Shown piece after piece: positions 3,860 through 64,000 of a stretch of 64,000 bases of DNA (its first letter is position 1; every line of letters begins with the position of its first letter). Below the pieces are notes generated by a model. The model did no database searches and was not told the origin of the DNA. It worked only from the letters and a program-made list of their open reading frames with translations. The position numbers and the translations under genes are program-made. Origin of the DNA: a virus (lineage: Duplodnaviria > Caudoviricetes); IMG/VR virus record IMGVR_UViG_3300032321_001056, positions 1 to 64,000 of that record. One strand, written 5' to 3'.

Positions 3860-3860
3860 A

Positions 3861-4178: not shown

Positions 4179-4179
4179 A

Positions 4180-4389
4180 TTAATCTCTTTCCTCTAGTTC
4201 TACTGATATGTCTAAGATTTGACCTACTAAAAGGTCTTTTTGATATTGTGAAATGTCTGGGATTAACTCAAACATTTTCTCTATTGCTTCTTCTTCTAAT
4301 GGTTCAATATCTACTGATTCACTTTCCCAGCGGTTAATTGAAATACTATGGTAAGGGAATACAATTATTGCTGTGTATTCATTCATCAC
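4180..4389 (-). CDS. hypothetical protein
   Basis: Packed acidic ORF. Confidence 0.7.
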   Translation of the reverse strand: MMNEYTAIIVFPYHSISINRWESESVDIEPLEEEAIEKMFELIPDISQYQKDLLVGQILDISVELEERD

Positions 4390-4622: not shown

Positions 4623-4863
4623 TATTAATACTCAATCTTTCTTGTAGTAGTTGTAACATTCTTGTGTCTTGTTCCATAATCTTATCGTTATCTAATTTGA
4701 TCCACTCACCCGTACCCATATTAAAAACTGGGGTTGGATAAAATACTTCAACATTTTCCATGTATAAATCAAAGTTAATCTTGTCATCTTTATCAAGCCA
4801 TGCTTTTACAATAAAGTGATGTTCTTTTCTATGGATATCTCCATGTCTAATTCCGCTCATCAT
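4609..4863 (-). CDS. hypothetical protein
   Basis: Start moved to MMSGIRHG (AAGGA RBS), which removes a long overlap. Confidence 0.7.
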   Translation of the reverse strand: MMSGIRHGDIHRKEHHFIVKAWLDKDDKINFDLYMENVEVFYPTPVFNMGTGEWIKLDNDKIMEQDTRMLQLLQERLSINNDKN

Positions 4864-46800: not shown

Positions 46801-47929
46801 CAATAAAGTTATTGTCACCGCCCCCCTGAGGCATGTTCTCCGTTGTGTCAACTGTTATTGTTGACGAAGATGATATAATGTTTGCAGTCAAAACTGAGTT
46901 AATTAGTATTTCATTTGTTTTTTGTATCTGCCAACCTGTGTAAACATGCGCCCGTAAGTCTTTTTTCATATACTTTCCATATGTTGAAGAAGAACTAAAC
47001 AAGCTAAAATCTTTTCCGTTATTATCAAGTTTTAATGAGCAAGTTGAAGAACCACCACCTGCTATCGGGAGGCTTGTCTCATGGACATCTCTTACCTTAG
47101 CAACATTAAAATCCATTACATAGTCTGTAACATCTGTCTGGTAAATAGGGGCTACCTCATTCACCCTTGCACGATCAAGGGGATTCTTGGTAGTATAGAC
47201 AGTTAATACTACTTTGTTTATATTGTTGCTATTTAAGTAATGAGTATTATAATAAGAGTTGTCTGGTATTTCAGAATCAACATTAAATACCAATGTAGCT
47301 GTATTCTCATAGGCTTGAATGTTATAAGATTTAATTTGACCGCTATACTCTGCTGTAATAACTTTAAGCATATTTACAGGTCTTCCTACGAAATTATATT
47401 CAATAATCACTGGGCTGGAAAATTCATAACCATTTCTTGTTGCATGAGTATTACTGGTGCTTTTAACCCCAGAAATAAACCCAAATTCATAATTATCATC
47501 TTTTGATGATGGGAGAGCATGCCATTGACCATTGGCAGTAATAGTTTTGCCAAACTTATCTTTTGCATCACAAACAGCCCATGTAAATGACTGGCGTTCT
47601 ATCCCATTAATTGATTCATTTGGAGTAAAATAATAATCAGACCTGTTTCTTTTATTAAACTCTACCTCTTTGGTAGAGAGGGTGCGGTATGTTGGTGTTA
47701 TTCTGTTAGTCCTTAACAGCATCCCAGAAACTTCTAGGTTAATAGCATTTGTCGTTGCAGCTGTAAATGATGATGTGGAAGATGCAATTTCCGCATTATT
47801 ATATTTACCAACATGCCGACTATCTAGCCAATCAATTAAAATCAAAGGCTTAATTGTTTGAGATATGGCAGTAGTACTTTGAACAAAAGTATTTGATATC
47901 TGCTTACCATATAGACCGTACTGAAGCAT
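43895..47929 (-). CDS. large minor tail/receptor-binding protein with PA14 and LamG-like domains
   Basis: PA14-like FDGYYIPSSSG...LTAGRLYEIRIEF; LamG-like FSIEVY...HIGVTY...YYING...IDEFAIFKKMLTDEEIKKHY. Confidence 0.8.
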   Translation of the reverse strand: MLQYGLYGKQISNTFVQSTTAISQTIKPLILIDWLDSRHVGKYNNAEIASSTSSFTAATTNAINLEVSGMLLRTNRITPTYRTLSTKEVEFNKRNRSDYYFTPNESINGIERQSFTWAVCDAKDKFGKTITANGQWHALPSSKDDNYEFGFISGVKSTSNTHATRNGYEFSSPVIIEYNFVGRPVNMLKVITAEYSGQIKSYNIQAYENTATLVFNVDSEIPDNSYYNTHYLNSNNINKVVLTVYTTKNPLDRARVNEVAPIYQTDVTDYVMDFNVAKVRDVHETSLPIAGGGSSTCSLKLDNNGKDFSLFSSSSTYGKYMKKDLRAHVYTGWQIQKTNEILINSVLTANIISSSSTITVDTTENMPQGGGDNNFIVTINPGTTTQERVLCYKDSYNTLTVVERGFGDTEASDHTIGETVQFDPYEYVPCGIFYVDEWQSSSSDMSVNASLTNWNKFTNEKMITNGYFMQESTIAEAVDNLLLRTNFPKKDIDYFSKPSKTYKKDDAILHFGFDEDTVDRASTTRIPSPSLRARFVALPEKQQNTIKDIKLDANDRALSAEEISLDIITYVSPSFTSTSNVISTQPGGEAEPVALNYQNDSFVASNGSTITDYYNGVFDGYYIPSSSGIHRLNLEVKNCGVRMIFNKNMTEINSWYEVDPGSNVATTFQTEEMDLTAGRLYEIRIEFFHKTDDFGIALKKEFEGAEADWVWAHECVTMPSFDYIGSKSDVTYLDFASGSWSVNTGGNFVERVANRNDGRYVGSALTGQASGVVSDPGNKSVLLASNSYIRVPYHISYDIFDSSSSSYTNEFSIEVYAKFHNGSFAGTGEYISNWSNATSTSGFEFFNTSSSNGFKFKTSTGTATVTSNTALSSSVFTHIGVTYKSNTLKYYINGALANTVTTTGTLLPYTGKDLTIGGRGALFTPETLEEFAVETPPASFRSFYIDEFAIFKKMLTDEEIKKHYIETQMQPVFVMPFIYGNETTIQSLIDTISLADLGRLYIDEYGKARYEHYYRFFEPTIAQHASVQKTFSDDTNIIDASYNVQLQANKVTVKLTGVSTKNNALQGLWSVEDGTTLAVGKLNANIASNAASIPMVTTDKPYFPKSGYVKLDDEIIRYESKSANSLDTLTRAYFNTIAAAHTANTLVREVQQYTITYNSAPAYQVQNPLISGIFNKRPALVEIIKFEPNAYKANLIVAASQYAPDASEVWLKGTDELNNEQSVTAIAGIPIVVQQTNNDIREQTNTLSDNIRLYGLKEIVIENEFITNLAHAKTIADFLISKMSDPVPVLNLTITPTPTIQLGDRIRISSMDSFDIINGDYWVISTEIGYGSQPSQSMVIRKVI

Positions 47930-48988: not shown

Positions 48989-49384
48989 TTAGACCTCCAC
49001 CAAAGAAATCTCAACATCGTAATACGAACACTTTGTTGGCATATGTCTTCTTATCAGTTTTTCTGAATATGAATCAATAAAGCATTCATATTCTGTATAC
49101 CCCTCACCTGGGGCTAGTTCTATCCCGACTGTTACGCTCGCTCTCGTGTTGACTAAATTGCTTAAATAGCTCTGTCCAACCCGACCATCTGCAGTTACAC
49201 TCTGTACACTTGGAAGGTACTTCCAGCTTATTGAAAACTTCTGTTTATTCTTAGAATAGTATCTTCTTCTATGACCGCTAGCCAAATCAATATCGTTAGC
49301 AGCAATTTCCTCATCAACTTTCAATGTTCTTCCGTGCTCTGTAATCTCAACACCGTCAATTGTCAGCAGCTTGTATAGGTCCAT
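48989..49384 (-). CDS. probable distal tail protein
   Basis: Immediately follows the TMP; FSISWKYLP...CSYYDVEISLVEV. Confidence 0.7.
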   Translation of the reverse strand: MDLYKLLTIDGVEITEHGRTLKVDEEIAANDIDLASGHRRRYYSKNKQKFSISWKYLPSVQSVTADGRVGQSYLSNLVNTRASVTVGIELAPGEGYTEYECFIDSYSEKLIRRHMPTKCSYYDVEISLVEV

Positions 49385-52300
49385 TATTGACCCCTATTCA
49401 AACCATTGTATGTTGAAATTACACGATTTTCAAGACCAGCCGCTTTTTGATTTTTTGGCAAAATCTTTGTATTGTAATCTTTCATCATTGAGTTAAACCA
49501 TTCTGGCTCTCCGATAAAGTTGTCAACATATATGTTTACATTCTGTGTTGATGTTGTCATTCCACCAGCCATGTTTCCACTGTATGATGCCTGTGGTACT
49601 GAGAATCCTGCGCTTGGAACATTAAACTTCATTTGATTCATCGCTTCAAGATGAGCCAAGCCGTACTTCTTTACAGCAGCAGCATTAAGAACATATTCTC
49701 CGCCATGAAGAATAGAAGGTACTTCTCCGCCTTCTTTAAAGTTAAGATAACCACCTTTCTTAAAGCGTGGAGGTTCAAAATTACCTTTTTCAAATTCTTT
49801 CCAAATATATCGTGAAGATCTAGACGGTAAAAAACTGCTTATTTTTTCTTTTATTTTTGACATAAAAGTATAAATATCTTTAGTTCTGTTAAACAAATTA
49901 AATCTTTGCTCGCCTATTGGTAAATTTATTTCTGGGTTTTCTAGAAGATTCCACTCCTGCCCTCTCTTTATGCCAAAAACTTTTCCTATTTGTCTTAAAA
50001 GCGGGGAGTCGCCCCAAGCTCCTTGGTCAGTAAGATTATTATAAAGTTGTTGACCTACCTTTCTTTGAATTTCTGCATGATTAAACAATTCCCAAGATTG
50101 CGGTATTATTCTTGGATCGCTATCAATCACTGGAGAACTGGGAGATTGGAATATATTCTTAAAAATATTTATAATTCCTTCTGTTAATTCCTCTTCATCT
50201 GGAATACCGCTCGTTTTTCTAAGACCGAGCATTTTATTAATATATTCATTCCATTTAAATACATCCGCTTCTTCGTCTAAAATTTTTGGCATGTCTCCAG
50301 ACAATTGCAAGCGAGCTTTAACTAAAAGTCTTTGTATTGTTTCATCTAAAGAATTACTATCTCTAAATGAACGGGCTCCAGATATCATATCTAATTCATC
50401 AAACAAATCTATTATTTCCCTATCTATACCTTTCTTTCCAACAATACTTTCTACTGATGGTAATAGATCCCTAGTAGGGTTAGAAATTATTGAACTAGGA
50501 TTTCCAGATTGCAAAACTTTCTTTCCATAATTTTTCAATGCGCCTGGGATTGAATACAGGAATCCATCAGCTTTCAATTCAAATTGTGATGCTCCTTGTT
50601 TAATTTTATTCCATGTCATTTTGGTTCCAATTTCTAAAGCATTCGGGAGCAAAGAGGCATCCATGCCAAGAAGACCAAGCCTATTCATGGCTATATCGCC
50701 CACACCCTTCAACGCTGGTCCGAACATTCTTTTAGCTATTGGAGTAAATGGCTTTGCAACAGCACCAACAATCTTGTCACCGTAAATTGTAGAAATAACA
50801 TTTGCAGCATCTCCAAAACCATACTTTTTGTTATTAGCTATTTGACCAAACCCACCAGTTTTTCCACCAGGAATGTTTAGACCAGTAGCCTGGTTAAGAC
50901 CACGAATCCAGTTCACTCCTTCTTTCTCTGTCCTAAGAACTCTATTGTCCAAATTCTTCATTGGATTAAAGCTATATCTCTTATCCAGCAATGCCATTGG
51001 TGATTCAACAACACTTGCACCTATGTTGTAAGCTGAATCTCCAAGTTTGACAAATGACTGGATCGTGTCTGTAGCCATATTAAGAACACCCTTGCCAATC
51101 CCGCCAACTTTACCCCAGAAACCTTTCTTCTTCTTAGGAAGCATTGGACCAATAAAACCGCCTTGCTCAAAGCGTGGAACTTTAGGACCACCGAAGCGAG
51201 TAACCGATCTACGAACAGCTGAGTCAACATAAGCAAGGGCTTCTTTTTGGGTCAATGTGCTTGGGATTTTTATTTCAGACAATACTTTAAGTGGATTTTT
51301 TGAAACAAATGAATTTGGATCAACATCATCAAAAATATCTGATGATTTTGGCATTCCCTTTGGTCCTCTTACGACATAAACACTTCCACCTGGGGCAGGA
51401 GCTGGATAAGTTCCTTTAACTTTCCCCCACCCAGCTCTTGCACTTGCATTGTCAGTTCCAGTGTATTTCCAACTACCTTCAGTCATACCTGGTTGCATTG
51501 TTGCTTTCTTCAAGAAAGCAAGCGGATCTTTATTCCCAATTGCCGCATCAGCAAAAGGTTTTATTTCAGTTAACCCTTGTGTTGGTGAACTATGAAGGAA
51601 TATTTCTTCACGCTTAATATAATTACGAAGTCTTGCAATATTACTTCTTACTTTATTAAATACACCCGTGATACCACTGTTTTCACGGTACTGTGCGAGG
51701 GCAGTTGCCAATTCTTCTTTTGTTGATGTGATTGGCAATTCTGCCAAAATTTTCTGCCAAGGAGACATTCTGGCTTCTGTCCACATAACATTGGGGTCCA
51801 TTTCAATACCACCTTTTGATCTTGTGATATAGAAAGAAGATGAACTTGGGTCTGACAATTGGCTAACCCCTCCTTCACCAACTCCATACCCTTGCCTTTC
51901 TGCAAAACCTTTTGCATATTTAGCTACATCGTCTACAGTGCCCTGTAGCCAAGAATATGTTTTTCCAGGTAATTGATCACTAGGTCCAGTCCTTAAAGCC
52001 CCCTCAACTGCGTTAATTGATGAAAGACCAGATCTACCAGCATGGATACCAATTTTTTTCGCAAATGGATTAAATTTAATTAATTTATTAAAAATTGAAG
52101 TTAGCGGTCCAGCTTTATAGAAGTCGCTGCCGCTATATGGGAATAAACTAGATGGAGGTACTGGATTCATTGGTGTCATAGGTCTACCACTAGGCGAAAT
52201 ATACGGCGGTTTTTTATTTAATCTTACATACTCTTCATAAAACTCTTTGTTTTTATTTTCTCTTACAGCTCTAATTGCAATATTATCCGATCTAAAAATA

Positions 52301-55300
52301 TTTTTAAACCACCCTTCAACTGGAGCTTCATAATTTCTTAATGTATTACCTAAAGAATCTAACCCACCTTGCTTCCAGCTTCCTCCAAACGCTTTTAAGT
52401 AATCTCCAGCAACAGGGCTTATTTTACTTATTCCTTTTCCTAGAGAAGAAAGGGCTTTTGATTTTGTATATGAAACACCAGCTTTGATAAGACCTGGAAT
52501 TTCTGCGGCATCCATACCAGCGAGACCAAGCCTGTTCATAGCTACATCGCCCATACCTCTCAGAGCAGGCGTGCCATATTTTGCAAGAGCAGGCATTATA
52601 AATCTTTCACCTATGGCACCTGCACCTGCCCCCAAGCCATACATCGCTCCTTGCAGTAACATATTCTTTCCAATATCAAGCGGCTGGAAGCCTTTCTTCT
52701 TGTCAAACGCTTGTTCAACTAATGAACCAATTCCTCCGCCAGCTGCAGAGCCAGCCATACCAGCAGCGACCATTGCAGCGGGACCGCCTGGAGTTGCAAG
52801 TATAGCCGCAAGAGTTCCTCCAGCAATTGCAAATGAATTCTTTGGTCTTAATATTTCTTTACCTATATTGAAAGCACCCTTGCCAACACCAGCGACCTTA
52901 CCCCAGAAACTCTTATTCTTCTTTGGAAGCATTGGACCAATAAAACCGCCTTGCTCAAATTTCTTTACTTTTGGTAGTTGTTTTTTAGTTTTATTTAATT
53001 TTGATTGCATTTGCAACCATGCAGTCCACTGAGGATCTGTTCCGCCAGCAATTGGCGGATTTCCCATACGCCATTGAGCATCCATTCTTGTAACAATAGT
53101 AGGAGCTGCTAGATTGTAACCCATGTTGCTGCGCCAGGCGTTAATATCCGCTGGCAATAAGTACCCCTCCCCTTTGTAAGCTGCATCATAACTCATAATT
53201 GAATTGAGCATTTGTGAACTACTGTTACCACCATACTTATTTTTTAAAGAACTTACATATTCATGAGGGTGATCAAACCCTCCAATATGACCGAACTCAT
53301 GCATAAATACTTCCTTATGAAGTGAAGGATCACCCCACATTAAATTTTTACTTCCAGTATTATAAGCCATTGATGCTGTATTTATTTTTCCATCTTTATT
53401 AAAAACTCCACCAGGTAAATGTATACCTGCACTAGTCTGCCCAGCCCACCATTTATTGGGCTGATAAGCAGTGTTTACATCAAGAAGCATTTGATTTCTT
53501 CTATTTAATTTTGATTTCTCTAATAATGGACCAGCAAATTCAAAAGGAATACCTAAATATGTTGACATTGTAGCCATTGCATCGGATATACCTTGGTGCA
53601 TGGTGAGCATCCTTCTATGATCTGTTGAAAATCCATCAGCCTCTTCGTTATGACGATTTGCGGCTATTCTATAAGCAGCATCACCGTCATTTCTTAATAA
53701 ATCATCATCATTCCAATAAAGTGGATTTACATATATTTTCTTTAGCCCTCTGATTATCAAAGCATTATTTGGCTTATAATTAACCATTCCACGAGCAATT
53801 TCTTGCTGAGTGTTTATAGCATCATTAACATATGCCAATTGAGGAGGCATATTGCCTACAAATTGAGGTTCAGGCAGATGAGAGTAATAACTATTACCGC
53901 CTATTGATTCTTCATGGTCTTTACGAAGCTGATCAATATATATATCAAGAGCTTCAGGAAAATCACCGCCCATTTTTTTCTTGTAATCTTTAATTTGAGT
54001 CTTCCAAGGTTCTTTATTGACATCAAACGCTGGTTTCTTTTCAAAAGTTGTTTGATTTTGATTACCACCCTTACCTTTCTTGCCAAAAAACCAAGACAAA
54101 GGATTCAAATTCTTGAGCTTTGGCAAGCCAAAGCTCTTGAGCCTTGGTAAGCCAAAGCCAGGCTTCAAAAAACCGCCAAGTTTGAATTGTGGAATCATTC
54201 CGCCGAGGTATTTTTTAACACCACTATCTGATCTTGTCCACCTGTTCTTTCCATCCCATACTATGGAAACATCTTCACCTTTCTTTCCGCCCAGTGGGAT
54301 TCTATCTGTTGGGTAGTAGCCAAGAATATGGCGATACCGAACAGGAAAGCCAAATGAGCCTACTGGTTCACCTATGTGGTCTTTCCATGTGGTCATTTGC
54401 GGTTGTCTATCTGCTCCGCCTCCTTCATGATGAATCCAAGGCGGATCTGGTTGATTTGTATAACCAGCCCAAGGAGCATCTGGTTCATAACTTCCATCTT
54501 GTGGGTATCGTTTTTCAGGCGGAATAATTGGAGTTATTCTTCCACGCCTTCTTGAATTTGGGTCTTGTTCTTTAGGAATTTGCCTTCTTGAAGATGGATT
54601 GCCTTTTACCCTAATTTGATCTTCATAACGATCTGGACTTACATGACCTCTAGACCAAATCCAAGGATCACCAGCTTTTCTCAAAAAACCACCATTTGCA
54701 AAACCTAGAGCCTTATCAAATTTTTTCAATTCATTAAGAGGCTGGAAAAATACCCTATTTTTTCTTACACCTTCATACCCATCCAGGAACTTAGGTTGTC
54801 TATAGTATTCATATTGGCTATCTGGAATTCCCTTAAAGGCAACCATTTCAGCAATCTTTACTTGATCTTGCCAAGATGGAGTTGCATTTGGATTATTAAA
54901 GTTTCCTACATCAACACCAGTTTGCTTCTTATAAGCATTGCTATAAATCTGCCATGTTTTTCTTGCAATATTTAATGGACCAACAAATACTCCACGACTT
55001 GTTTTTGTTGTTGCACCGAGCGCATTCATCCAATCAGGACCAGATTCAGATCTAGCTATTGCAGCCCAGTCAAGCATGTGCATTGTTGTTCCAGTTGCTT
55101 TACCAGACCTGATGTTTACATTTGGAACGGTATAAGATTGACCACTATTATTAGTAAATGTTCTAAGGCTACTGTCATCACTTGGATTAATTGGCTCAGA
55201 ATCTTTTGGTCTTCTTCTTACTGCACCGCCACGAGCAAATCCAGGCGCTGTCATATATCCACCGTTTGCAAAACCTGGAGCTGTCATATAACCGCCATTT

Positions 55301-58300
55301 GCAAACCCAGGAGCAGTCATGTATCCGCCAGAAGCAAATCCCCTCCAAGCACCGCCGTTCTTTAGTGAGTTAATTCTTTCAAGGTTTCCTTTTCCAAACT
55401 TCTCCACAGCTTTGTGGTTGATAATGTATTCACCACCGTGAAGTAACGCAGGAATTCCTTGTGACGCTGGCGCTTCTAAGAAGCCACCACGACCATATTG
55501 ACCAATAGACCCACCGTTGTACATTTTTGGCAGAAGCGGTCCGCTACCAGCACCACCGCTAAGGTCTACTGTTGACCCTGGAAGATTAATTCCTGCCATT
55601 ATCTTTATTGCCCAGCCTTGTTCAAAAGGAGTCAAGCCAGATGTAGGGAGAATGGCTTTGATTCCAACCACACCTCTTAATATATTGCTTGCAATTAAGC
55701 TAACAATTCTTGCAGCAGATGCAGCCATAGCAGTTCTTTGCGCAGGACTGGCAAATCCAGTTTGCATAAGACCAGTAGCTGTTTTTGTCCACTCATCAAT
55801 TGTTGATTGTGGTATTGATGCAATTTCTGGGGCACCGCCAATACCTTGCAAAGCGGAACTTGCTTTTGCCGCTTGAGTTACAATTTGATCAACTAATGGT
55901 TTAATTTCCGCTAGAAGATTACTAAAGCTAGCCAAAATTTTAGGGAATGCAATATCTCTATTTAATTCACCTTTCAGCTTTTCAAACGCATCATTTCCAG
56001 CTTTTTGCCAAATATCAGCAATGTTATTCTTATTACCTTTTTCTGAAAGTGAAGATGTAATTTTTGCAATAGCGTCAACTGCTGGTTGCACATATGTTGT
56101 AGCAAATGTAGGATTGAAAGCTGCCTTAAACCCTTCCTCGCTCCCAATAGCCATCATTCTTACAGCACCAAGAACTGTTGAAGGGCTAGCTACTTTATTA
56201 TCTACTCCAAATTTCTTAGATGCTTCTCTAATCAAATCATCCATATTGGCACTAAACATCTTGATAGATGGATCACGAACTCCAGCGATAATGGCTGGAA
56301 GCTCACCAATGTTTTTAGCAAAAACTTTGGCTAGATCAGACGAAGAAACATTTGCTTGATCCCCAACTTTTTTTAGGGCAGCAGCAAATTCTTCTTGTGT
56401 TGCAAAACTCTTATTCTTTACATCTTCAATAAACCGATCAAATGAATCAAGGACTTCCTGGAATTGTTTCTCGGCAAGATCTTTTTGATTTGAAATTGCT
56501 TGCTTAGCTAAATCTCTTTGTTCTGACTGGAGCTGAGATAGCCTGTCGGTATCAAGATCTTGAATTTCTTGGTTAGAATTTCTTTGAGCCAATACCTCTT
56601 CTCTGTCAAGCTTTCTAACATCAAACGCACGACCCTCGTAAACCGCCAGTCTTCTCTCTACCAAGTAGTTTCCACGATCAGTCTCTCTCTGATCAATCAT
56701 CTCTCTACGCTTTGTTTCGTAGTCTTTCTTAGCCGTTAATCTTGCTTCAGCATCAGCAAGAGCATCAATACCAGCAATTTGGTCATCATAAGCTTTCAAC
56801 TGCTGATCTTTTTGCTTTTCTAATGCATCAGTATATTGTTGAATAATATTGTCAAATTTAGCATCAACATTTGAATAAAAGTAACCTTTCAAAGTATCTT
56901 TTATTTCTTTCATCTTATCTTTTATACCATTAGCGATCTGACTTCCAAGTGATTCTCCGCCTGATGAGGCAGCATCAGCTGATTGTTTTACATTATATGC
57001 TAATGCATCTTTATAGCCCTTTGGATCTTTAAGAGCTTGTGTCAATGGTACATTTATACCTTTACCAATTAATTCAAAATACTTTTTAGAAGCAATGTCA
57101 AGTTGACCAACCATAACTGTATCAAATATTGATTTAATTTTAGGTAATAGATCACCGATACCTTTATCTACATTTGCAGCAAAATCTGATTGAACTTTGT
57201 CAGATTCAGCACTACCACTTGAGCCAGCAGTAGTTTTTTTATTATCAAACTTTCCAGATCTTAGGGCATCCCTTTGCTCTGTTAAGGACATTCCTTTTGT
57301 AGTGTAATTTTGTCCACCAGGACCATTACGAACATATTTAGATACTGGTGTATCAATTCCATATGTTTGACTTTTAACAACAGCAGCTAAAACATTATTA
57401 AGAATTCCATTTGCCATATCTTTCCCAGCGGCTACTGAAAGCTGAATTAGAGCAACAAACATTTGACCAAATATGTTTAATATACCCTTTGCTATTTCAC
57501 CAAATACTGGTGTTAATGTAATAGATACATTTATGATTCCATCTACTAATTGTTTAAATATATTGATAACATCATAATAGAAGGACCACATTATTGCTTT
57601 AATTTTTTTCATTCCAGATTCAGTGTCACCGCTAGCAAAATTTTTGATAGCAGAACCAAGAAGAATAAACTTGTTAATTATTCTAACAAGCTGAGGCGCT
57701 ATTGTATTTTTCATAAATGCAGCGCCAGTTGTCTTAGCCCAGTTCCGAATGGCTTCTGCGGCTTTCTTTATAAATCCAGTTATTGAGTAGAATAATGCAG
57801 CGTTCTTCTCCCCCTCTGTTGCAAATTGTCCAAGAACTTTGTTTCCACCTGTGAATTGATTAATTACATCTCTAATCGGAGCAAACAATGCTGCAACAGC
57901 TTCTTTAATAGCAGCAAAAGCATCTTTTAGATTTTGCATTGATGAATCTAAACGACCAGATGCTGATTTCCATGCTCCAAAGAATCCAACAAGAATCGCT
58001 ATAACTGGAAGAGCTATGAGCACTGCAGTGCCAACTAGTGCTATTGTACTAGCTAACTTCGTAAACATATTCATCATCTTTTCACCAGCTTTAACTATTC
58101 CGCCATCAAATAGTCCACCAGCAGCAGCGACTGTTTTACGAACTAAACCAGCTGGTGATTTACCTTGTTCTGACCTCAATGTATTCATTGCAGAAATTGC
58201 TTTTTTAGCACCAGAAATTCCATAATCCCCAGATGTAGCAAGATTCTTTATTGCGTTGAAAGCTTTCTTTGCTGGACCAACTAGCGCAGATAGACCGCCA

Positions 58301-61300
58301 GATAATGCAAATAGCCAAACTTTAAATGTTGTTTTTCCTAAAATAGATTGCAATCTTGAGAAATTACCAATCAATTTTCCACTAAGAACTCTATTAGCTT
58401 TTTCAAGTTCAATTTGTGAAACTCTTCCAAACTGGCTTACCTTTTCTATACTCTTCAATACTCCCTTATCATCAAATCTTGCAAAGATTCCTTTAGCTGT
58501 CATTCTTTTTGCAAGACCTGGGAATGTTGAAATACCTTCAGCTGTTGAATCTTGAGTTAGTGCATCTGCAAACTTTCTATTATTAAAGAACTTTCCAAGT
58601 AACCCTTTTCTTCCTGTTTTTGGACTATTAAAACCCAAAGCGCCAGCAGTAGGTGGTGGTAGAAGATTTGTAGCACTTACTGTCTCTGCTGCTGTTACAA
58701 GCGCTGCGGCTGCCTGTTCTCCACCAGCAGCTATTGAAGCAGCTGCTTCTTTTGCGGGGAGTGTTACTTCATCAAAATTTGGAATCATATCTTGCAAGTT
58801 TGCATCAAAGATATTTTCCGAGAAAATGTTTGGACCTTTAAATAAGTGTCCGATCTTATCAATATTTAGAACTTTTCCAGCACCGCCAGTTGCTGATGGT
58901 GTTGCAGGAGTTGGTATTACTGGTGTTGTAGGAGTTGGAATTCTTGGAGGCGGTGCTGTTGGCGCTGTACCTCCAGTTGTTCCAGTTGGTATGATTGAAG
59001 ATGGTGCTGTCGGTGCAACAGTAGAAGCAAGTTGCGCAAGCTGGTATTCAGCAACAACATACTTATCCCTTGCAAAAGCAAGATCTTGTAATTGCTTATT
59101 GAGCTTAGCTAAATTCTTTTCTGGTCCCTTTCTCATCGCTGGTGATGTAAATGTATTAAGGAGTTTTTGTTCCCCAGCAATCATCCCTTGAAGTCTTTCA
59201 ATTTCTTTTTCAAAATGTGTGACCGTTAATTTCTTAATTTTTGCGGAAGCACCAGAAGCTTTAGCGTCAATACCTAATTGCCTTGCTAATTCTCGCTGAG
59301 CGGATTCCATCATCTTTTCTGCTTGCCTCTTTGTTGCTGGCAATTCTATTCCAGTATTCTTAAAACTCTTAACGGTTGCAGGGGTTGGAGATATAGTAGG
59401 CGATGTGGTTGTTGGCAATTGAGCTGCAGCAACAGGGGTAACTGGAGCTTGTACAACTGGCAGCATCCCAGACAATCTATTTGCAAGTTGATTTCTCAAA
59501 TCTTCAGCGGCTTGTTTCATACCAATAGGATCAGACTTAGCCAAGCTCATATCAACTTTCTTAGCAATCTTATTCATTACTTTTTTAGGTGCCTGAACTA
59601 TGTCATCAATGCCAGAAAAAGCATTATTAACAATTTGCTCTACTTTCTTTTCAACAACAGCCTTTGCACCTTTAGGAGCATTTTTTGCGGCTCTGGTTCT
59701 TGCAGCAAGTGGTCTCCACCAATCATTGATACCTCTTCTACTAACTTTTGTTGCATCTTGATCAAAAGAACCGCCAAGACCAACAAATCCACCAGACATT
59801 GATTGATACACAAGATTTTGTAATGCACCAGTTATCCCCCGACTCGTTCCAAAATTCTCACCTTCCTTAAGTTTTATTAAACTAGAGCCAAACAGTAGTT
59901 CTTGAAGCCCCATTTTTTCTCCGTCAAGACCTTGAGTTTTTTTGCGCAATCTTTCAAAGAAAGCTTTAAGACTTGCTGGAGTGCCGCCCTTAAGACCATC
60001 ACGACCAGCGGTACCACCTTTAAATGTCTTTGTTACATCATTAACGACATTATTTACTGACAAGTTTATCATTGACTCAATTTGATCCTGAGTCATTCCT
60101 GGAATGTTCATTGTTGCTGTCAAGAAATTTCTCAGAACATTAGGTAAATGTTTATGTTTTGTTTTAGTTGAAGCCAATCTTCTCATAACTTCAGAAATAT
60201 GTTTAACTTCAGTTTGAGATGTTGAAACAACAGTCAATAATTGTTCTTCCAAGCTATCTGCAAATCTCATAATGATATCGCTTCCAGTAAACTGAGTGTA
60301 GTCAAATGCGGCACTTAAGCTCTTAGGGAAGCGGAATAAACTCTTAACACGACCAAAAACTCCTGGAGTTTTTGCACTTGCAGCAATTGCTTCAGTTTCA
60401 GATGCTGATCTCTTGAAAATTTGTTTTATCCCAACGGTTGACAAGAATCTTTGCCCACTTCTTGGGTTAAGTATTCTTTTTGCGTTCAACTGCTGGAATC
60501 TTGGGTCATTAAAGAAACGAGAACCACTATATTTAAATGTATCTAATGGTAAATTATCTCCAACTGCCTTTTTTTGAGTAGGGATAAAATTCCACATTGG
60601 GTTTACAGGTGCAGCTCTTCTAATTGGAGCAACTGCCTGATTAAATTTTTCCCCAAAGAATCGTGAGCCTTTATATTTTGTCCAAGGAAGATTTATACCT
60701 CTTGTTGCATCTTCAATATCACCTTCAAGTTTTTGCACTGGGGCGTACATTTCCTTTAGACGCTGTTTCAAATTCAATATTGATGTTTGCCTACTGGCTC
60801 TTCTCTTCATTTTACTATCTTTTGAGCTTAATAATTCAGCATTCAACATTTCTCTTTCAGAGGCAATAAATTCTTCATGAGGTGTGAGCTGAGGCATTAC
60901 TCTTGGCTTAGGGAGCTTTGCTGTTTCAGCGTCAATCAATCTTTGTATAGCGGCAGGTGATTCATCTAAATTCTGACGCAATCTTCTTAATGAAGCGGTT
61001 TTCTGAGCATTTAAGATATCAATTTCATCTTGAAATGCAATTTTTATTTCTTCCAACTTGGCTAAACCAGCTTTTTCAAGTTTTGCTTTGCCAGTTTTTG
61101 TTATTTTCATTTCTTCAGTAATTATATCTTTAGCATTCTTTAATTCTAAATCTCTTAATCTGACTTGCTCAGCAATAAGATCATCTATCTCGGCTACGCT
61201 ATTTCTAGACACTTCTTGAGCTGCTAATAACTCAGTTTCATTTATAGCAAGACTCATATCAACACCATTAGGTGAAATCATAGTTTTATTTCTAGATAAA

Positions 61301-63999
61301 GCTTTTGCTTTTTGTTTTTTTAATGCATCAATTCTTTGTCTTATTGGTGCAGCAACATTTGTTTCAGAAAAATTTGTAGCTGTAGCTTCAGCTACTCTTT
61401 CTGCAATAATGTATCTTTCTTGCAGAAACAATAATTCATCAAGATTTCTAACAGCAGATGTCCTAGCTCTTCCTGTTGAAGTAGCTATTTTTTTCTTTAA
61501 AGATTCAATTTCATCTCTTACCTTTATTTCTTCTACTGTTTGACTTCCGATTAATCTTTCATCCCATGTAAGACCTTTTTTAACAGCCTTTTCAGCCCCC
61601 TTTGCTGGCAGACTGCCTACTTCAGCAGCGGCTCTATCTGCAGCTTGAAGCGCAAGAGTTTGATCATTCTGTTTTCCTAAAATAGGATTTTTTACCAATT
61701 TAACAACTGCTTGACCAGATTTATTTACATCTTCTTCAAAACGAGAAACTTTAGCACGGACATCTCTCATTGCTCTTCTTAAATCATCACCAAATGAAGA
61801 TATAGGACCAGCTTCATGAGCAATAATATCTATTTGATCAGCAATTTCTGGCAGTAATTTATGAATATCAGCAAGGGAATTAACAACTACAGTCTCAGAG
61901 CCCCTTACAACACCTTTAGTAACTCTTTGAATTGCGACAAAATGATCTTCAACTGCAGCTGCAAGATCTGCTTGTAAAACTTCTTTACCAGAAATAAAAT
62001 CAGTTATAATGCGACCAGAAGCGCCCATCGGTGTTCCACCAAAAGCATTTATTTCCATTTCATTAGCCGCTGCAAGTGCTACATTTCGCATATTATCAAT
62101 TTGATCTTGAATTGATTTAGCAACATTGTCAACTAAAGGAGCAAGCTCTGCCTGCCCTGCTGTACCGAAACTTCTTGCATTACGAATTACAGCTGAATTA
62201 ATAAGTCTATCATCAATACCTGTTTCTTTAACAGAAACAGTGAATAAACCTTGTTTAGTTTTGTCAAAAATTTGTTTTTTAACTTTATCAAGAGTTTTTT
62301 GACTTACACCAAATACGCCATTACCAGATAATGCTTCTGCAAGTATTGGCTCCATTTCTTTTCCAGCTTCTTCATACCATTGTTTTATTTGTGCCAAAGA
62401 TAGCTCTACAGTGTTGCTAATTGATGATACTGCCTTTTCTACTGGATTTTCTGCTGGTCTAAATAATGAGAGAATACTTCTTCTTCTATCGGAAGCTTTT
62501 CTTGCACCAAATGGCAACGCTGAACCTACAGTGTTAGGTATCTGTATATTCCTAACATCTGCTTGAGCAAATCTTGGATCATTAAAGAAACGGCTCTTCC
62601 CTGTTGGGAACATTGAAGCCCAAGCAGCTTTCGCTTCTGCCATCGGAGACTTTACTGATCCTGGTGCATTTGGTATTGCTAAATTTCTGACATCGGCTTG
62701 AGCAAATTGTGGAGTAAAGAATCTACTGACACCTGGTGGATAAGTAGTAACTGTTGGTGGTCTTAACCTAGCCTTTCTTGCCTCATTTGCAGCAATAGCT
62801 GCTGCGCTTTCTTCTGCAGTTAGATTGTCAGCGATAGCGCCGCCAGCTCCTCTTGGTGCTCTAGGAGCTTTTGGCGCACTGCCTGGACCTCCAGAGAATC
62901 CGCCAAATGGAATATTATTTTCAAAATAGTTTGGACCCGCAAACAAGTTTGGTCCTTGAAATTTATGCATTACTGTTGCAAACTTCATTGCAATATCATC
63001 AGCAAGATTTGCTGTTCCTTTTGATACTCCCTCTTCAGAAGCATTAGCTACTCCAGCAACCATTTGGGCAGTCCCTTGAGCCTGTATGACTTTTAGATCA
63101 TTCATCAATTGATTTGTTTGCGGGACATAAGGCTGAAGCCTCTTCATGTTTACAGCCTTATCTGATCCGTAAATACCTCCACCTGTGATTGCTTCTTTTG
63201 CTGGGAGAGAAATTCCACTAAAGTCATAGGCTTCTTTTAGTTCCTTAGCACCTCTCTTTGATTTAATTAAGAACCCATCCATGTATTGAACAACTCTTTG
63301 TTGCCCACGCAATAAATTTGGATTCATGATCAAGTCTTGAAGACTTGCAAATTGTAATGTTGTCCCATTTATAATTCTTGATAATTTAACAAACAAACCA
63401 ATCGTACTTCCAAAAGCAGTTTTTAGTGTTGTAAACACCATTCTTAATGGTCCAGATAAAGCAACAACTCCAAGAAGAGCGCTAACTAATTTTGCAATAA
63501 ATGGATTGGTTTGCAAAAAAGTTGCAAGCTTTTCAAGAACTGGAAGAAGACCTTTTAAGAAAATGTCAACAACTGGGACAACTGCTCTGCCCAATGACAG
63601 CAATGATTCTTTTGCTCTGCGGTATCTAACTTCTGGTGTGTCTTGAGATAGTTTCAATTCAGCTTCAAATTGAGTACCAGCTAATTTGTTAACATCAAAA
63701 GCTTGAGCCATTAAAGCTTTACCAACTTCAGTACTCATTCCAGAAATAAAATCTGAATTTTTTGACTTATTTTTTTCCAGTAATGCTTGCGCTTTCAGTT
63801 GTCCTTTTTGAACAGCAAGAGCTTGTGCTGTTAACACATCCTTACCGTCTTTCTGAATAGCCATTCTATGGAGCGTGCTTAGGTCTTCAAACTTTTTAAT
63901 TGTTATTTCTTTTTGACCTATAGCACGCAATTCTGCGTTAACAGAATTTTGCAATTGTTTAGCTACGGTATTCTCCATAGTCCCAGTAGTATCCAATTG
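49384..63999 (-). CDS. giant tape measure protein (5'-truncated, >4,870 aa) with C-terminal enzymatic cargo array
   Basis: Frame is open to the window edge (CAA precedes the TTG called as start); amphipathic helical TMP segments; hydrophobic stretches; position just before the tail genes; two LHGGEY modules. Confidence 0.9.
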   Translation of the reverse strand, partial: QLDTTGTMENTVAKQLQNSVNAELRAIGQKEITIKKFEDLSTLHRMAIQKDGKDVLTAQALAVQKGQLKAQALLEKNKSKNSDFISGMSTEVGKALMAQAFDVNKLAGTQFEAELKLSQDTPEVRYRRAKESLLSLGRAVVPVVDIFLKGLLPVLEKLATFLQTNPFIAKLVSALLGVVALSGPLRMVFTTLKTAFGSTIGLFVKLSRIINGTTLQFASLQDLIMNPNLLRGQQRVVQYMDGFLIKSKRGAKELKEAYDFSGISLPAKEAITGGGIYGSDKAVNMKRLQPYVPQTNQLMNDLKVIQAQGTAQMVAGVANASEEGVSKGTANLADDIAMKFATVMHKFQGPNLFAGPNYFENNIPFGGFSGGPGSAPKAPRAPRGAGGAIADNLTAEESAAAIAANEARKARLRPPTVTTYPPGVSRFFTPQFAQADVRNLAIPNAPGSVKSPMAEAKAAWASMFPTGKSRFFNDPRFAQADVRNIQIPNTVGSALPFGARKASDRRRSILSLFRPAENPVEKAVSSISNTVELSLAQIKQWYEEAGKEMEPILAEALSGNGVFGVSQKTLDKVKKQIFDKTKQGLFTVSVKETGIDDRLINSAVIRNARSFGTAGQAELAPLVDNVAKSIQDQIDNMRNVALAAANEMEINAFGGTPMGASGRIITDFISGKEVLQADLAAAVEDHFVAIQRVTKGVVRGSETVVVNSLADIHKLLPEIADQIDIIAHEAGPISSFGDDLRRAMRDVRAKVSRFEEDVNKSGQAVVKLVKNPILGKQNDQTLALQAADRAAAEVGSLPAKGAEKAVKKGLTWDERLIGSQTVEEIKVRDEIESLKKKIATSTGRARTSAVRNLDELLFLQERYIIAERVAEATATNFSETNVAAPIRQRIDALKKQKAKALSRNKTMISPNGVDMSLAINETELLAAQEVSRNSVAEIDDLIAEQVRLRDLELKNAKDIITEEMKITKTGKAKLEKAGLAKLEEIKIAFQDEIDILNAQKTASLRRLRQNLDESPAAIQRLIDAETAKLPKPRVMPQLTPHEEFIASEREMLNAELLSSKDSKMKRRASRQTSILNLKQRLKEMYAPVQKLEGDIEDATRGINLPWTKYKGSRFFGEKFNQAVAPIRRAAPVNPMWNFIPTQKKAVGDNLPLDTFKYSGSRFFNDPRFQQLNAKRILNPRSGQRFLSTVGIKQIFKRSASETEAIAASAKTPGVFGRVKSLFRFPKSLSAAFDYTQFTGSDIIMRFADSLEEQLLTVVSTSQTEVKHISEVMRRLASTKTKHKHLPNVLRNFLTATMNIPGMTQDQIESMINLSVNNVVNDVTKTFKGGTAGRDGLKGGTPASLKAFFERLRKKTQGLDGEKMGLQELLFGSSLIKLKEGENFGTSRGITGALQNLVYQSMSGGFVGLGGSFDQDATKVSRRGINDWWRPLAARTRAAKNAPKGAKAVVEKKVEQIVNNAFSGIDDIVQAPKKVMNKIAKKVDMSLAKSDPIGMKQAAEDLRNQLANRLSGMLPVVQAPVTPVAAAQLPTTTSPTISPTPATVKSFKNTGIELPATKRQAEKMMESAQRELARQLGIDAKASGASAKIKKLTVTHFEKEIERLQGMIAGEQKLLNTFTSPAMRKGPEKNLAKLNKQLQDLAFARDKYVVAEYQLAQLASTVAPTAPSSIIPTGTTGGTAPTAPPPRIPTPTTPVIPTPATPSATGGAGKVLNIDKIGHLFKGPNIFSENIFDANLQDMIPNFDEVTLPAKEAAASIAAGGEQAAAALVTAAETVSATNLLPPPTAGALGFNSPKTGRKGLLGKFFNNRKFADALTQDSTAEGISTFPGLAKRMTAKGIFARFDDKGVLKSIEKVSQFGRVSQIELEKANRVLSGKLIGNFSRLQSILGKTTFKVWLFALSGGLSALVGPAKKAFNAIKNLATSGDYGISGAKKAISAMNTLRSEQGKSPAGLVRKTVAAAGGLFDGGIVKAGEKMMNMFTKLASTIALVGTAVLIALPVIAILVGFFGAWKSASGRLDSSMQNLKDAFAAIKEAVAALFAPIRDVINQFTGGNKVLGQFATEGEKNAALFYSITGFIKKAAEAIRNWAKTTGAAFMKNTIAPQLVRIINKFILLGSAIKNFASGDTESGMKKIKAIMWSFYYDVINIFKQLVDGIINVSITLTPVFGEIAKGILNIFGQMFVALIQLSVAAGKDMANGILNNVLAAVVKSQTYGIDTPVSKYVRNGPGGQNYTTKGMSLTEQRDALRSGKFDNKKTTAGSSGSAESDKVQSDFAANVDKGIGDLLPKIKSIFDTVMVGQLDIASKKYFELIGKGINVPLTQALKDPKGYKDALAYNVKQSADAASSGGESLGSQIANGIKDKMKEIKDTLKGYFYSNVDAKFDNIIQQYTDALEKQKDQQLKAYDDQIAGIDALADAEARLTAKKDYETKRREMIDQRETDRGNYLVERRLAVYEGRAFDVRKLDREEVLAQRNSNQEIQDLDTDRLSQLQSEQRDLAKQAISNQKDLAEKQFQEVLDSFDRFIEDVKNKSFATQEEFAAALKKVGDQANVSSSDLAKVFAKNIGELPAIIAGVRDPSIKMFSANMDDLIREASKKFGVDNKVASPSTVLGAVRMMAIGSEEGFKAAFNPTFATTYVQPAVDAIAKITSSLSEKGNKNNIADIWQKAGNDAFEKLKGELNRDIAFPKILASFSNLLAEIKPLVDQIVTQAAKASSALQGIGGAPEIASIPQSTIDEWTKTATGLMQTGFASPAQRTAMAASAARIVSLIASNILRGVVGIKAILPTSGLTPFEQGWAIKIMAGINLPGSTVDLSGGAGSGPLLPKMYNGGSIGQYGRGGFLEAPASQGIPALLHGGEYIINHKAVEKFGKGNLERINSLKNGGAWRGFASGGYMTAPGFANGGYMTAPGFANGGYMTAPGFARGGAVRRRPKDSEPINPSDDSSLRTFTNNSGQSYTVPNVNIRSGKATGTTMHMLDWAAIARSESGPDWMNALGATTKTSRGVFVGPLNIARKTWQIYSNAYKKQTGVDVGNFNNPNATPSWQDQVKIAEMVAFKGIPDSQYEYYRQPKFLDGYEGVRKNRVFFQPLNELKKFDKALGFANGGFLRKAGDPWIWSRGHVSPDRYEDQIRVKGNPSSRRQIPKEQDPNSRRRGRITPIIPPEKRYPQDGSYEPDAPWAGYTNQPDPPWIHHEGGGADRQPQMTTWKDHIGEPVGSFGFPVRYRHILGYYPTDRIPLGGKKGEDVSIVWDGKNRWTRSDSGVKKYLGGMIPQFKLGGFLKPGFGLPRLKSFGLPKLKNLNPLSWFFGKKGKGGNQNQTTFEKKPAFDVNKEPWKTQIKDYKKKMGGDFPEALDIYIDQLRKDHEESIGGNSYYSHLPEPQFVGNMPPQLAYVNDAINTQQEIARGMVNYKPNNALIIRGLKKIYVNPLYWNDDDLLRNDGDAAYRIAANRHNEEADGFSTDHRRMLTMHQGISDAMATMSTYLGIPFEFAGPLLEKSKLNRRNQMLLDVNTAYQPNKWWAGQTSAGIHLPGGVFNKDGKINTASMAYNTGSKNLMWGDPSLHKEVFMHEFGHIGGFDHPHEYVSSLKNKYGGNSSSQMLNSIMSYDAAYKGEGYLLPADINAWRSNMGYNLAAPTIVTRMDAQWRMGNPPIAGGTDPQWTAWLQMQSKLNKTKKQLPKVKKFEQGGFIGPMLPKKNKSFWGKVAGVGKGAFNIGKEILRPKNSFAIAGGTLAAILATPGGPAAMVAAGMAGSAAGGGIGSLVEQAFDKKKGFQPLDIGKNMLLQGAMYGLGAGAGAIGERFIMPALAKYGTPALRGMGDVAMNRLGLAGMDAAEIPGLIKAGVSYTKSKALSSLGKGISKISPVAGDYLKAFGGSWKQGGLDSLGNTLRNYEAPVEGWFKNIFRSDNIAIRAVRENKNKEFYEEYVRLNKKPPYISPSGRPMTPMNPVPPSSLFPYSGSDFYKAGPLTSIFNKLIKFNPFAKKIGIHAGRSGLSSINAVEGALRTGPSDQLPGKTYSWLQGTVDDVAKYAKGFAERQGYGVGEGGVSQLSDPSSSSFYITRSKGGIEMDPNVMWTEARMSPWQKILAELPITSTKEELATALAQYRENSGITGVFNKVRSNIARLRNYIKREEIFLHSSPTQGLTEIKPFADAAIGNKDPLAFLKKATMQPGMTEGSWKYTGTDNASARAGWGKVKGTYPAPAPGGSVYVVRGPKGMPKSSDIFDDVDPNSFVSKNPLKVLSEIKIPSTLTQKEALAYVDSAVRRSVTRFGGPKVPRFEQGGFIGPMLPKKKKGFWGKVGGIGKGVLNMATDTIQSFVKLGDSAYNIGASVVESPMALLDKRYSFNPMKNLDNRVLRTEKEGVNWIRGLNQATGLNIPGGKTGGFGQIANNKKYGFGDAANVISTIYGDKIVGAVAKPFTPIAKRMFGPALKGVGDIAMNRLGLLGMDASLLPNALEIGTKMTWNKIKQGASQFELKADGFLYSIPGALKNYGKKVLQSGNPSSIISNPTRDLLPSVESIVGKKGIDREIIDLFDELDMISGARSFRDSNSLDETIQRLLVKARLQLSGDMPKILDEEADVFKWNEYINKMLGLRKTSGIPDEEELTEGIINIFKNIFQSPSSPVIDSDPRIIPQSWELFNHAEIQRKVGQQLYNNLTDQGAWGDSPLLRQIGKVFGIKRGQEWNLLENPEINLPIGEQRFNLFNRTKDIYTFMSKIKEKISSFLPSRSSRYIWKEFEKGNFEPPRFKKGGYLNFKEGGEVPSILHGGEYVLNAAAVKKYGLAHLEAMNQMKFNVPSAGFSVPQASYSGNMAGGMTTSTQNVNIYVDNFIGEPEWFNSMMKDYNTKILPKNQKAAGLENRVISTYNGLNRGQ
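51137..51171. repeat. perfect 35-bp direct repeat, copy 2 (copy 1 at 52925..52959)
   Basis: ggaagcattggaccaataaaaccgccttgctcaaa; encodes FEQGGFIGPMLP. Confidence 0.95.
52925..52959. repeat. perfect 35-bp direct repeat, copy 1
   Basis: Identical to 51137..51171; spacing 1,788 bp (596 codons, in frame). Confidence 0.95.
54111..54158 (-). repeat. 24-bp tandem coding repeat x2 (FGLP[R/K]LK[S/N])
   Basis: tcttgagctttggcaagccaaagc / tcttgagccttggtaagccaaagc. Confidence 0.85.
55235..55339 (-). repeat. 33-bp tandem coding repeat x3 (FA[S/N]GGYMTAPG)
   Basis: Units start at 55235, 55268, 55301 and 55334 (partial); they differ mostly at third codon positions. Confidence 0.95.
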
Positions 64000-64000
64000 T

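Follow-up and report, generated by a model that had tools for sequence, protein, structure and literature searches.

Two putative Arr-like ADP-ribosyltransferase domains in a repeat-bounded cassette of a giant phage tape measure protein

Background

What role could two domains that resemble a rifamycin resistance enzyme have inside the tape measure protein (TMP) of an uncultured tailed phage? This question is raised by a DNA stretch of 64,000 nucleotides (the window), which corresponds to bases 1-64000 of the 78,507-bp IMG/VR virus record IMGVR_UViG_3300032321_001056 (Duplodnaviria; Caudoviricetes), classed as linear and estimated to be about 69% complete. A first-pass annotation of the window had placed two tandem ADP-ribosyltransferase (ART) domains similar to the rifampin ART Arr (Pfam Arr-ms, PF12120) inside a TMP. 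In this study, the two domains were followed up by structure prediction, profile comparison and searches for relatives, and they are interpreted as two paralogous domains, each about 110-130 aa long, from a divergent branch of the H-Y-[EDQ] ARTs that had not been annotated before, with Arr as the nearest characterised relative. We refer to a divergent Arr-like branch because the domains share the fold, the motif order and several signature residues of Arr, yet do not belong to Pfam Arr-ms. Residue numbers start at the window edge, and adding 487 converts them to full-length TMP numbering.

A classic route to host takeover is the delivery of ARTs by the virion, as with T4 Alt; the ARTs of this kind known to us are head-packaged and come from recognisable families, and to our knowledge most head-packaged phage ARTs belong to the R-S-E clade or to other clades that Pfam recognises. 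Arr is the only small-molecule ART that we know of. The ARTs carried by phages include T4 Alt, the MuF-VIP2 fusions of actinobacteriophages and the ART domains of polyvalent proteins (PMC5512222, PMC7302621, PMC9503650), and the polyvalent-protein paper makes no mention of tape measure proteins. Three aspects set the present case apart: a tail TMP as the carrier, with a C-terminal part built of repeat-bounded exchangeable cassettes; a divergent relative of Arr that family models miss; and a domain family that forms polymorphic tandem arrays beside the terminase gene in other uncultured phages.

Results and discussion

Predicted folds of the two domains

AF2 models were obtained for domain 1 (169 aa, from a 29-sequence alignment that included the domain 2 family) and domain 2 (model mf9b2ae9fdf5b; 173 aa, 45-sequence alignment). 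Both have a confident core, with pLDDT 75.7 and pTM 0.69 for domain 1 and pLDDT 72.2 and pTM 0.68 for domain 2, the latter being of low confidence only in the N-terminal lead-in and one insertion. In a Foldseek search of 350,542 PDB chains, the top three matches of domain 2 were Arr-2 (9iba; E = 1.6e-3, probability 0.99), MsArr (2hw2; E = 3.5e-3, probability 0.97) and 9iaf, which together span E = 1.6e-3 to 5.4e-3 and probabilities of 0.97-0.99; PARP15, tankyrases, PARP4 and CNFy followed at lower ranks. Against the same 350,542 chains, domain 1 also retrieved MsArr 2hw2 and 9iaf first (E = 1.3e-2 and 1.4e-2, probability 0.89), beyond which no probability exceeded 0.2 and all non-Arr matches stood at 0.04 or below.

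VIA-align, which is independent of Foldseek, returned ARTs for at least 45 of the top 50 chains with domain 2, as judged by entry titles, and with domain 1 it ranked Arr first. Z and TM values of the structural matches are modest; the case for the fold is based on the agreement of the match lists across two methods and two models. The first-pass annotation had named the absence of an ART fold from structure predictions as a ground for its refutation; the predictions instead yield the compact fold of Arr (as in 2HW2) for both modelled domains, with Arr as the closest solved structure, and we regard an ART fold of both as highly probable. Uncharacterised phage proteins with the same predicted fold were also found in BFVD, the best being A0A1B0XUA0 (E = 4e-10).

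The weakest alternative, in which short motifs converged by chance on a widespread alpha/beta arrangement and the domains are no ART homologues, is a very remote prospect, since two structure-search methods applied to two models rank Arr or other ARTs at the top, the match lists consist almost purely of ARTs by title, and the profile scores described below lie above those of all shuffles, with the bridging protein P0031 reaching 18.6 bits with an Arr hidden Markov model (HMM).

Profile comparisons with Arr

For the profile comparisons, an Arr alignment of 34 sequences was assembled from arr-3, an arr gene of Priestia and 32 genomic loci; arr-3 was located on a plasmid by means of a 31-residue motif, and the annotation of the record confirmed the gene. 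Trimmed domain alignments were compared by local hhalign. The domain 1 group and the domain 2 family matched each other (86%, E 4.6e-6, score 37.1), the maximum score in 40 column shuffles being 15.7; by BLASTP, domain 1 against domain 2 was not significant (E = 0.5). The domain 2 family matched Arr at 57% (56.8; E 1.1e-4, score 31.3), with a shuffle maximum of 19.4 and a score of 16.5 for the reversed control, and the domain 1 group matched Arr at 4% (E 0.011, score 20.7; reversed 14.4). In the relaxed alignment between Arr and the domain 2 family, the His residues of both are paired, and so are GS-V-Y-V-V and Y-I-Y-I-V, the two last strands and the two C-terminal helices.

The local Arr HMM gave 18.6 bits with P0031, a member of the domain family, compared with a maximum of 8.9 bits among 900 shuffled sequences, and the alignment sets P-K-G-S-F-T-K-D-P-E-N opposite P-T-G-P-F-E-D-D-P-N. 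Its scores for the window domains themselves were 5.0 bits (domain 1) and 1.9 bits (domain 2); on domain 1 the alignment is ungapped over SSSFYITRSKGGIEMDPNVM, at 4-5 bits only. As judged from the shuffled and reversed controls and from the top structural match, the resemblance to Arr exceeds chance. The parallel with Arr drawn in the first-pass annotation is thus supported at the level of fold and motifs, with Pfam Arr-ms itself remaining unmatched, and a specific affinity of the domains to Arr, as distinct from ARTs in general, appears likely.

Motifs and candidate catalytic residues

The motifs IGIHAG, KTYSW, AKYA, SFYITRS, EMDPN and PWQKILAEL follow one another in domain 1, and IFLHSS, LAFL, GSVYVVRG, DDVDPN and PLKVLSEI in domain 2; every motif quoted beforehand was found where it had been placed, in the minus-strand frame running from 63999 to 49384. 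MsArr has H-Y-D as its catalytic motif, which includes Tyr49 and Asp84 (bioRxiv 10.1101/2025.02.20.639278). In our alignment H22, G23, T24, Y52, G86, E89, D91, P92 and N93 (Arr-3 numbering) are invariant in all 34 Arr sequences, and in the last strand, 29 of the 34 have Glu at position 118. Arr (PDB 2HW2, 9IAF, 9IBA) is a minimal ART fold of about 110-140 aa that closes with a C-terminal helix, and the phage domains resemble it in this respect. Further traits in common are the His of strand 1, a Y-I-x-I/V strand that leads into a G-x-h-E-x-D-P-N loop (spaced identically in domain 1) and a last strand of the type P-L-[KR]-[IV]-[VL]-x-E; an aromatic residue appears to occupy the Tyr49 position, and the models of both domains have Arr as their top structural neighbour.

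Domain 1 retains a candidate H/Y/D triad, as had been claimed, with His3986, Tyr4015 and Asp4068, of which His and Asp are supported by the ungapped alignment with the Arr-family HMM (Table 1). Counted from Tyr4057, the residues Gly, Glu, Asp4068, Pro and Asn are at +6, +9, +11, +12 and +13, respectively, which are the spacings of Arr, and the pattern Y-I-x4-G-x2-E-x-D-P-N is spaced identically in the two. His3986 and His4136 match the Arr-type His on strand 1 (H19 of MsArr), which is paired with the Arr His in the relaxed hhalign comparison and invariant in the 45 family members; the S-x-Y pair (Ser4055-x-Tyr4057 in domain 1, Ser4206-x-Tyr4208 in domain 2) and the last-strand Glu (Glu4087, Glu4242) are nearly invariant in the same 45. 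This Glu, which the first-pass annotation had not singled out, is the best-conserved acidic residue of the family, present in 29 of 29 sequences. P0045 has Gln instead, and P0042 and P0057, which are outside the 29- and 45-sequence alignments, have other residues.

At the position of Arr Tyr49, Tyr4015 of domain 1 corresponds to Phe4162 of domain 2, in a segment aligned with low confidence, and the reported replacement of Tyr by Phe in domain 2 is thus seen at the aligned aromatic position. The claim for a catalytic Asp in domain 2 held in part. The DDVDPN motif is present, and it is kept in P0003 and P0004, with Asp residues at +16, +17 and +19 from the Tyr; compared with Arr, eight more residues separate the loop from the strand, which leaves it uncertain which Asp corresponds exactly to Asp84. 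A further candidate for this position, Asp4221, has a spacing nearer to that of Arr but was rejected, being Ser in both P0003 and P0004. Arr has an invariant Gly immediately after the His; in its place the domain 1 group carries Ala or Val, and the domain 2 family carries Ser, Gly or Ala. The stretch of Arr from the Tyr to the Y-I-Y strand is not alignable with the phage domains.

Taken together, the ART-dominated structural matches and the conserved His on strand 1, Tyr/Phe, Asp and Glu place the domains in the H-Y-[EDQ] clade. No R-S-E or ART-PolyVal family (PF01375, PF03496, PF01129, PF18760) was matched in Pfam at E <= 10, strand 1 carries His rather than Arg, and the domains have no E-x-E motif.

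Sequence searches and the limits of family models

Neither domain 1, domain 2 nor the tandem hit an ART family in Pfam by hmmscan at E <= 10, the matches being noise only (DNA_gyraseB_C, 0.018). Arr-ms (gathering threshold 25 bits) was among the families unmatched at this cut-off by all three queries; scans of 45 relatives likewise gave no ART family, Arr-ms included, and a six-frame search of the whole record with PF12120 returned nothing, again at E <= 10. Searches of PDB sequences by phmmer and with the family profile found nothing relevant, and tblastn and megablast against INPHARED phages (queried with the domains, the region, P0012 and P0026) found no match. In the ESM Atlas, nothing usable was obtained for domain 2, and domain 1 gave only a sub-threshold LPD38 lead (score 0.76).

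A phmmer search of 1.84 billion cluster representatives found ten proteins in total: P0002 (that of the window itself), three TMP relatives, four small stand-alone proteins of the domain 2 type and two spurious matches. The last two, P0007 and P0009, are repetitive proteins and were rejected as relatives. No homologue of near-equal length to the tandem was found, nor were longer homologues recovered with the family profile, a result that is weak evidence. No confirmed locus came from metagenome or viral contigs scanned with the tandem, or from metagenome contigs scanned with a four-sequence alignment.

The carrier and its cassettes

The window has a G+C content of 28-43%, and almost every gene lies on the minus strand. 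The gene that carries the domains starts with an ATG at 65460 of the record, beyond the window, and stops at 49384, which gives a protein of 5,358 aa; its window fragment (4,871 aa) is P0001. PF10145 (PhageMin_Tail) matches residues 247-468 of the full-length protein at 41 bits, against a cut-off of 33.2. Major-tail-like and chaperone-like genes precede it, including a major-tail-like gene with an Ig domain (phrog_2175/476/885) that is followed by a small open reading frame (ORF). Three ORFs come after it, of 131, 352 and 1,344 aa, and the 1,344-aa one has a minor-tail match (phrog_10359); the 131-aa and 352-aa genes recur in the same downstream synteny in the related fragment L096. On account of the PF10145 match and the tail synteny, the carrier is a TMP, and the domains lie within it as first proposed; PHROGs gave no match to the TMP itself.

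The two domains are the cargo of a cassette that consists of the linker FEQGGFIGPMLPKK, a Gly/Ala-rich hydrophobic scaffold, domain 1 and domain 2. According to the repeat search, it is flanked by two copies of a direct repeat that lie 1,788 nt apart and in frame. The next cassette has the same type of scaffold and a different cargo of about 250 aa, for which no Pfam or PHROG match and no recognisable family were found. The scaffold of about 200 aa that is common to the ART cassette (in its part 52123-52959) and the next cassette (49780-51171), both on the minus strand, is alike at a BLASTP E value of 1e-19 and comprises the linker, a Gly-rich part and ...GDVAMNRLGLxGMDA.... Within the scaffold of the ART cassette, residues 3721-3761 form a stretch with many small-xxx-small repeats, which may be a glycine-zipper membrane segment; a comparable Gly/Ala-rich stretch stands ahead of the ART-like domain in the stand-alone relatives described below.

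A C-terminal motif of the TMP around LHGGEY is present in two copies (37.5% identity over 56 aa, E = 4e-9), and the ART-like domains fall between them. Given this duplication, the cassettes (about 1,900 aa) have the appearance of an insert that separates an older C-terminus from a newer one. The cargo is also swapped among related TMPs: in P0003 (4,704 aa; 71% identity over the tandem) and P0004, domain 1 and domain 2 are followed directly by the TMP C-terminus, while in P0005 and the viral contig L096 domain 1 is followed by an unrelated domain of about 450 aa. Polyvalent proteins (Iyer et al. 2017) combine a number of unrelated effector domains with characteristic PolyVal/LPD domains in a single polypeptide delivered by the virion; the TMP has a multi-cassette architecture, and PolyVal or LPD Pfam domains were not detected in it.

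Two further features of these proteins were recorded. Upstream of the ART cassette, the TMP contains a zinc-protease-like HEFGH motif (53287-53301, minus strand) with no Pfam or PHROG family match. In L096, a Pro-rich repeat run (KPDFSIMPIP / PDFSIPTPVPEKPDFS) is located just ahead of the C-terminal end (L096:2700-3100, plus strand), a feature not found in the TMP of the window.

Table 1. Positions of the features discussed in the text. Coordinates are those of the window unless a contig is named.
Feature	Position	Strand	TMP residues	Remarks
TMP ORF, window part	49384..64000	-		single open frame without stops; 4,871 of 5,358 aa
LHGGEY motif, first copy	55330-55497	-	2834-2889	
Direct repeat, upstream copy	52856..52959	-		104 nt; family D1; linker FEQGGFIGPMLPKK...; 85% identity to other copy
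ART cassette	51172..52959	-	3681-4276	596 aa
Gly/Ala-rich hydrophobic stretch	52717..52839	-	3721-3761	from sequence reading
Domain 1, predicted Arr-like ART fold with C-terminal helix	51682..52065	-	3979-4106	
His, domain 1	52042-52044	-	3986	
Tyr, domain 1	51955-51957	-	4015	
Asp, domain 1	51796-51798	-	4068	
Glu, domain 1	51739-51741	-	4087	last strand
Domain 2, predicted Arr-like ART fold with C-terminal helix	51190..51618	-	4128-4270	
His, domain 2	51592-51594	-	4136	
Phe, domain 2	51514-51516	-	4162	in Tyr position
Acidic loop, domain 2	51313-51330	-	Asp4224/4225/4227-Pro-Asn	Asp4227 at 51319-51321
Glu, domain 2	51274-51276	-	4242	last strand
Direct repeat, downstream copy	51068..51171	-		104 nt; family D1; opens next cassette
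Next cassette	49780..51171	-	4277 to about 4740	
LHGGEY motif, second copy	49597-49764	-	4745-4800	
Family gene loci	L003; L004:7755-8699; L005:7680-8507; L006; L007:944-3760; L009:1424-4806; L010:5374-6207; L011:7773-8627			profile search

Stand-alone relatives beside terminase genes

A profile of the small stand-alone proteins recovered 60 unannotated proteins without Pfam domains and ten viral loci. Members of this family are 195-400 aa in length and share an N-terminal end with MAPRKP..., GGWLGG and AAQNPLVAQN, a Gly/Ala-rich stretch, a swappable central domain and a basic PKKK C-terminal end; overall identity is 20-35%, and neither a Pfam family nor an INPHARED phage match was found for them. 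The central domain is usually of the domain 2 type (hHGSP..GL..I.P, F or Y, Y-A/T, GS[VI]Y[VI], KVV[SA]EI), with D-P-[NED] in about half of these relatives. In P0052, P0059 and P0062 it is a variant closer to domain 1, and a more Arr-like variant, with KIGVHHS, YSYFW, VGYVTK...RPDTN and QKIVGTVKA, is encoded by the ORFs L009:2312-3103, L007:2978-3760 and L006:1568-2437. Unrelated central domains also occur, ParB-like (DGHHR) in P0049 and something else in P0061 and P0068.

At the terminase loci, the family genes are single or arranged as two to four tandem paralogues. In L004, L005, L007, L009, L010 and L011 they immediately precede an ORF of about 650-660 aa, which is followed by a portal-sized ORF; the large terminase subunit and portal are confirmed by PHROGs in L004 only and are assigned by ORF size and position at the other loci. 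Iyer et al. read a terminase/portal neighbourhood as a sign of packaged ARTs (PMC9503650).

A possible role in the infected cell

Our preferred reading is that the Arr-like ART family consists of virion-delivered effectors that modify the host, to which we assign a probability of about one half. During infection, the TMP would be expelled from the tail tube into the host envelope, where the Gly/Ala-rich hydrophobic scaffold may insert into or cross the cytoplasmic membrane. The ART domains would thereby enter the cytoplasm, the sole compartment containing NAD+, ahead of or along with the DNA, and could move ADP-ribose from NAD+ onto a host macromolecule, whether proteins of transcription, translation or defence, or nucleic acid. 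Packaged T4 Alt modifies the host in this manner. Ejection, translocation, any processing, the use of NAD+ and the target are steps that we infer. The position of the scaffold ahead of the ART domains, both in the TMP and in the stand-alone proteins, would fit a role in membrane translocation, given that glycine zippers of TMP C-terminal regions and of Tde1, an effector of type VI secretion (T6SS), have been linked to this process (PMC10240207).

Several observations weigh against this reading. The domains and the 45 relatives lack Pfam ART matches and PDB sequence matches; the canonical H-G-[ST] is not kept, being H-A-G in domain 1 and H-S-S in domain 2; domain 2 has Phe where the Tyr of Arr is invariant; and about half of the stand-alone relatives lack D-P-N. 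Moreover, the residue equivalences are drawn from sequence and profile alignments rather than coordinate superposition, the two fold results are not fully independent because the underlying alignments overlap, and the arrival of the cassette region in the cytoplasm is itself part of the proposed scheme.

Some of these observations would be expected if the domains were ART-fold pseudoenzymes that transfer no ADP-ribose and act in the TMP as structural elements, spacers or binding modules, the bound partner being, for example, a host factor or a nucleotide. The deviation from H-G-[ST] in both copies, the change from Tyr to Phe in domain 2, the failure of any ART HMM to recognise the domains and the presence of inactive ART folds (PARP13, AvrPphF ORF2) among the structural neighbours are all in favour of this explanation. 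However, despite an overall identity of only 20-35%, the His is invariant, S-x-Y and Glu are nearly so and D-P-N is frequent, and conservation of this kind in such a divergent family points to selection on an active site. In addition, stacking on nicotinamide is still possible with Phe, and in other ARTs the Gly after the His touches the ligand through its backbone, which also counts against a loss of activity. We therefore consider pseudoenzymes rather unlikely.

The domains could also be active NAD+-using enzymes with a non-protein target, which would ADP-ribosylate DNA or RNA, or hydrolyse or phosphorolyse NAD+ or a defence signal derived from ADP-ribose. There are precedents for both, as DarT, Tpt1 and pierisin act on DNA or RNA, and MbcT and the RES toxins on NAD+. 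The present data do not discriminate between targets; however, depletion of NAD+ would hurt phage replication itself, and no ADP-ribose-processing partner (Macro, ARH or NADAR) was found in searches of the 78.5-kb record, which is incomplete. The latter result agrees with the earlier remark that no immunity gene follows the domains. Such a target seems to us slightly less probable still than inactive modules.

Finally, ADP-ribosylation of a small molecule as in Arr, either a rifamycin-like antibiotic or another metabolite, would be in keeping with Arr being the closest solved structure for both domains, and genuine Arr-family genes occur in some phages (PMC9503650). Against it, the Arr-ms HMM is not matched, and the few TMP copies per particle are better suited to a catalytic strike on a host macromolecule than to bulk detoxification. 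Confident alignment to the domains is also lacking for the part of Arr that runs from the Tyr to the Y-I-Y-I-V strand and presumably helps shape the rifampicin site. This explanation is thus very unlikely, and a role in rifamycin resistance is unlikely because the domains are built into a virion protein.

Comparison with known systems

The phage domains differ from Arr in failing the Arr-ms HMM, in having H-A-G or H-S-S in place of H-G-T and, in domain 2, in the Phe and in an acidic loop that is longer by eight residues. Arr is a free cytoplasmic resistance enzyme, whereas the phage domains stand in tandem inside a virion TMP. With T4 Alt, the MuF-VIP2 fusions and the ARTs of polyvalent proteins, they share a virion-borne state, from which entry into the host with the DNA is known or predicted, multi-domain effector polypeptides, and genes near those for terminase and portal. 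Those ARTs, however, are head-packaged (by a capsid-targeting sequence, MuF or a polyvalent protein), while here the carrier is a tail TMP and the residues are of the Arr-like H-Y-D/E type.

A closer parallel in terms of the carrier is the TMP of phage P23-45, whose fused virion RNA polymerase transcribes pre-early genes in the host (PMC10770324). Both are giant TMPs (5,002 aa in P23-45 and 5,358 aa here) that bring, or in our case would bring, a cytoplasmically acting enzyme into the host; however, the enzyme of P23-45 is N-terminal and experimentally shown, whereas the ART-like cargo here is predicted and resides in C-terminal, repeat-delimited cassettes. Tde1 and the Sle1-type effectors of contractile injection systems (CIS) (PMC10240207, PMC13277306) similarly have a Gly-rich membrane-active segment before swappable enzymatic cargo, and the Sle1-type effectors are TMP-like modular carriers with exchangeable functional domains. 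They belong to bacterial secretion or contractile injection systems, and the likeness drawn here is one of architecture.

If the domains are active, they would provide a testable case of tail-mediated effector injection, an evolutionary context for Arr and a new set of compact ART domains. A more specific proposal, that the domains and the stand-alone relatives form a phage-specific sister family of Arr made up of polymorphic virion-delivered effectors that are carried in the tail by the TMP or encoded by tandem arrays beside the terminase gene, and that ADP-ribosylate a host macromolecule, is doubtful at present; if true, it would show the origin or the destination of Arr, and a single ancient minimal ART scaffold would have been put to two uses, in the resistance enzymes and in the phage effectors.

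Other genes of the record

The 1,344-aa protein encoded downstream of the TMP gene (43895-47929, minus strand) contains PA14 and lectin-like Laminin_G_3 domains and has minor-tail and tail-fibre PHROG matches; it is probably a receptor-binding tail protein. Among the head genes, a 280-aa protein (L002:11577-12419, minus strand; record 71577-72419) matches endolysin PHROGs as well as the muralytic part of the TMP PHROG phrog_16823, and thus represents a lysin-like gene in an unusual location.

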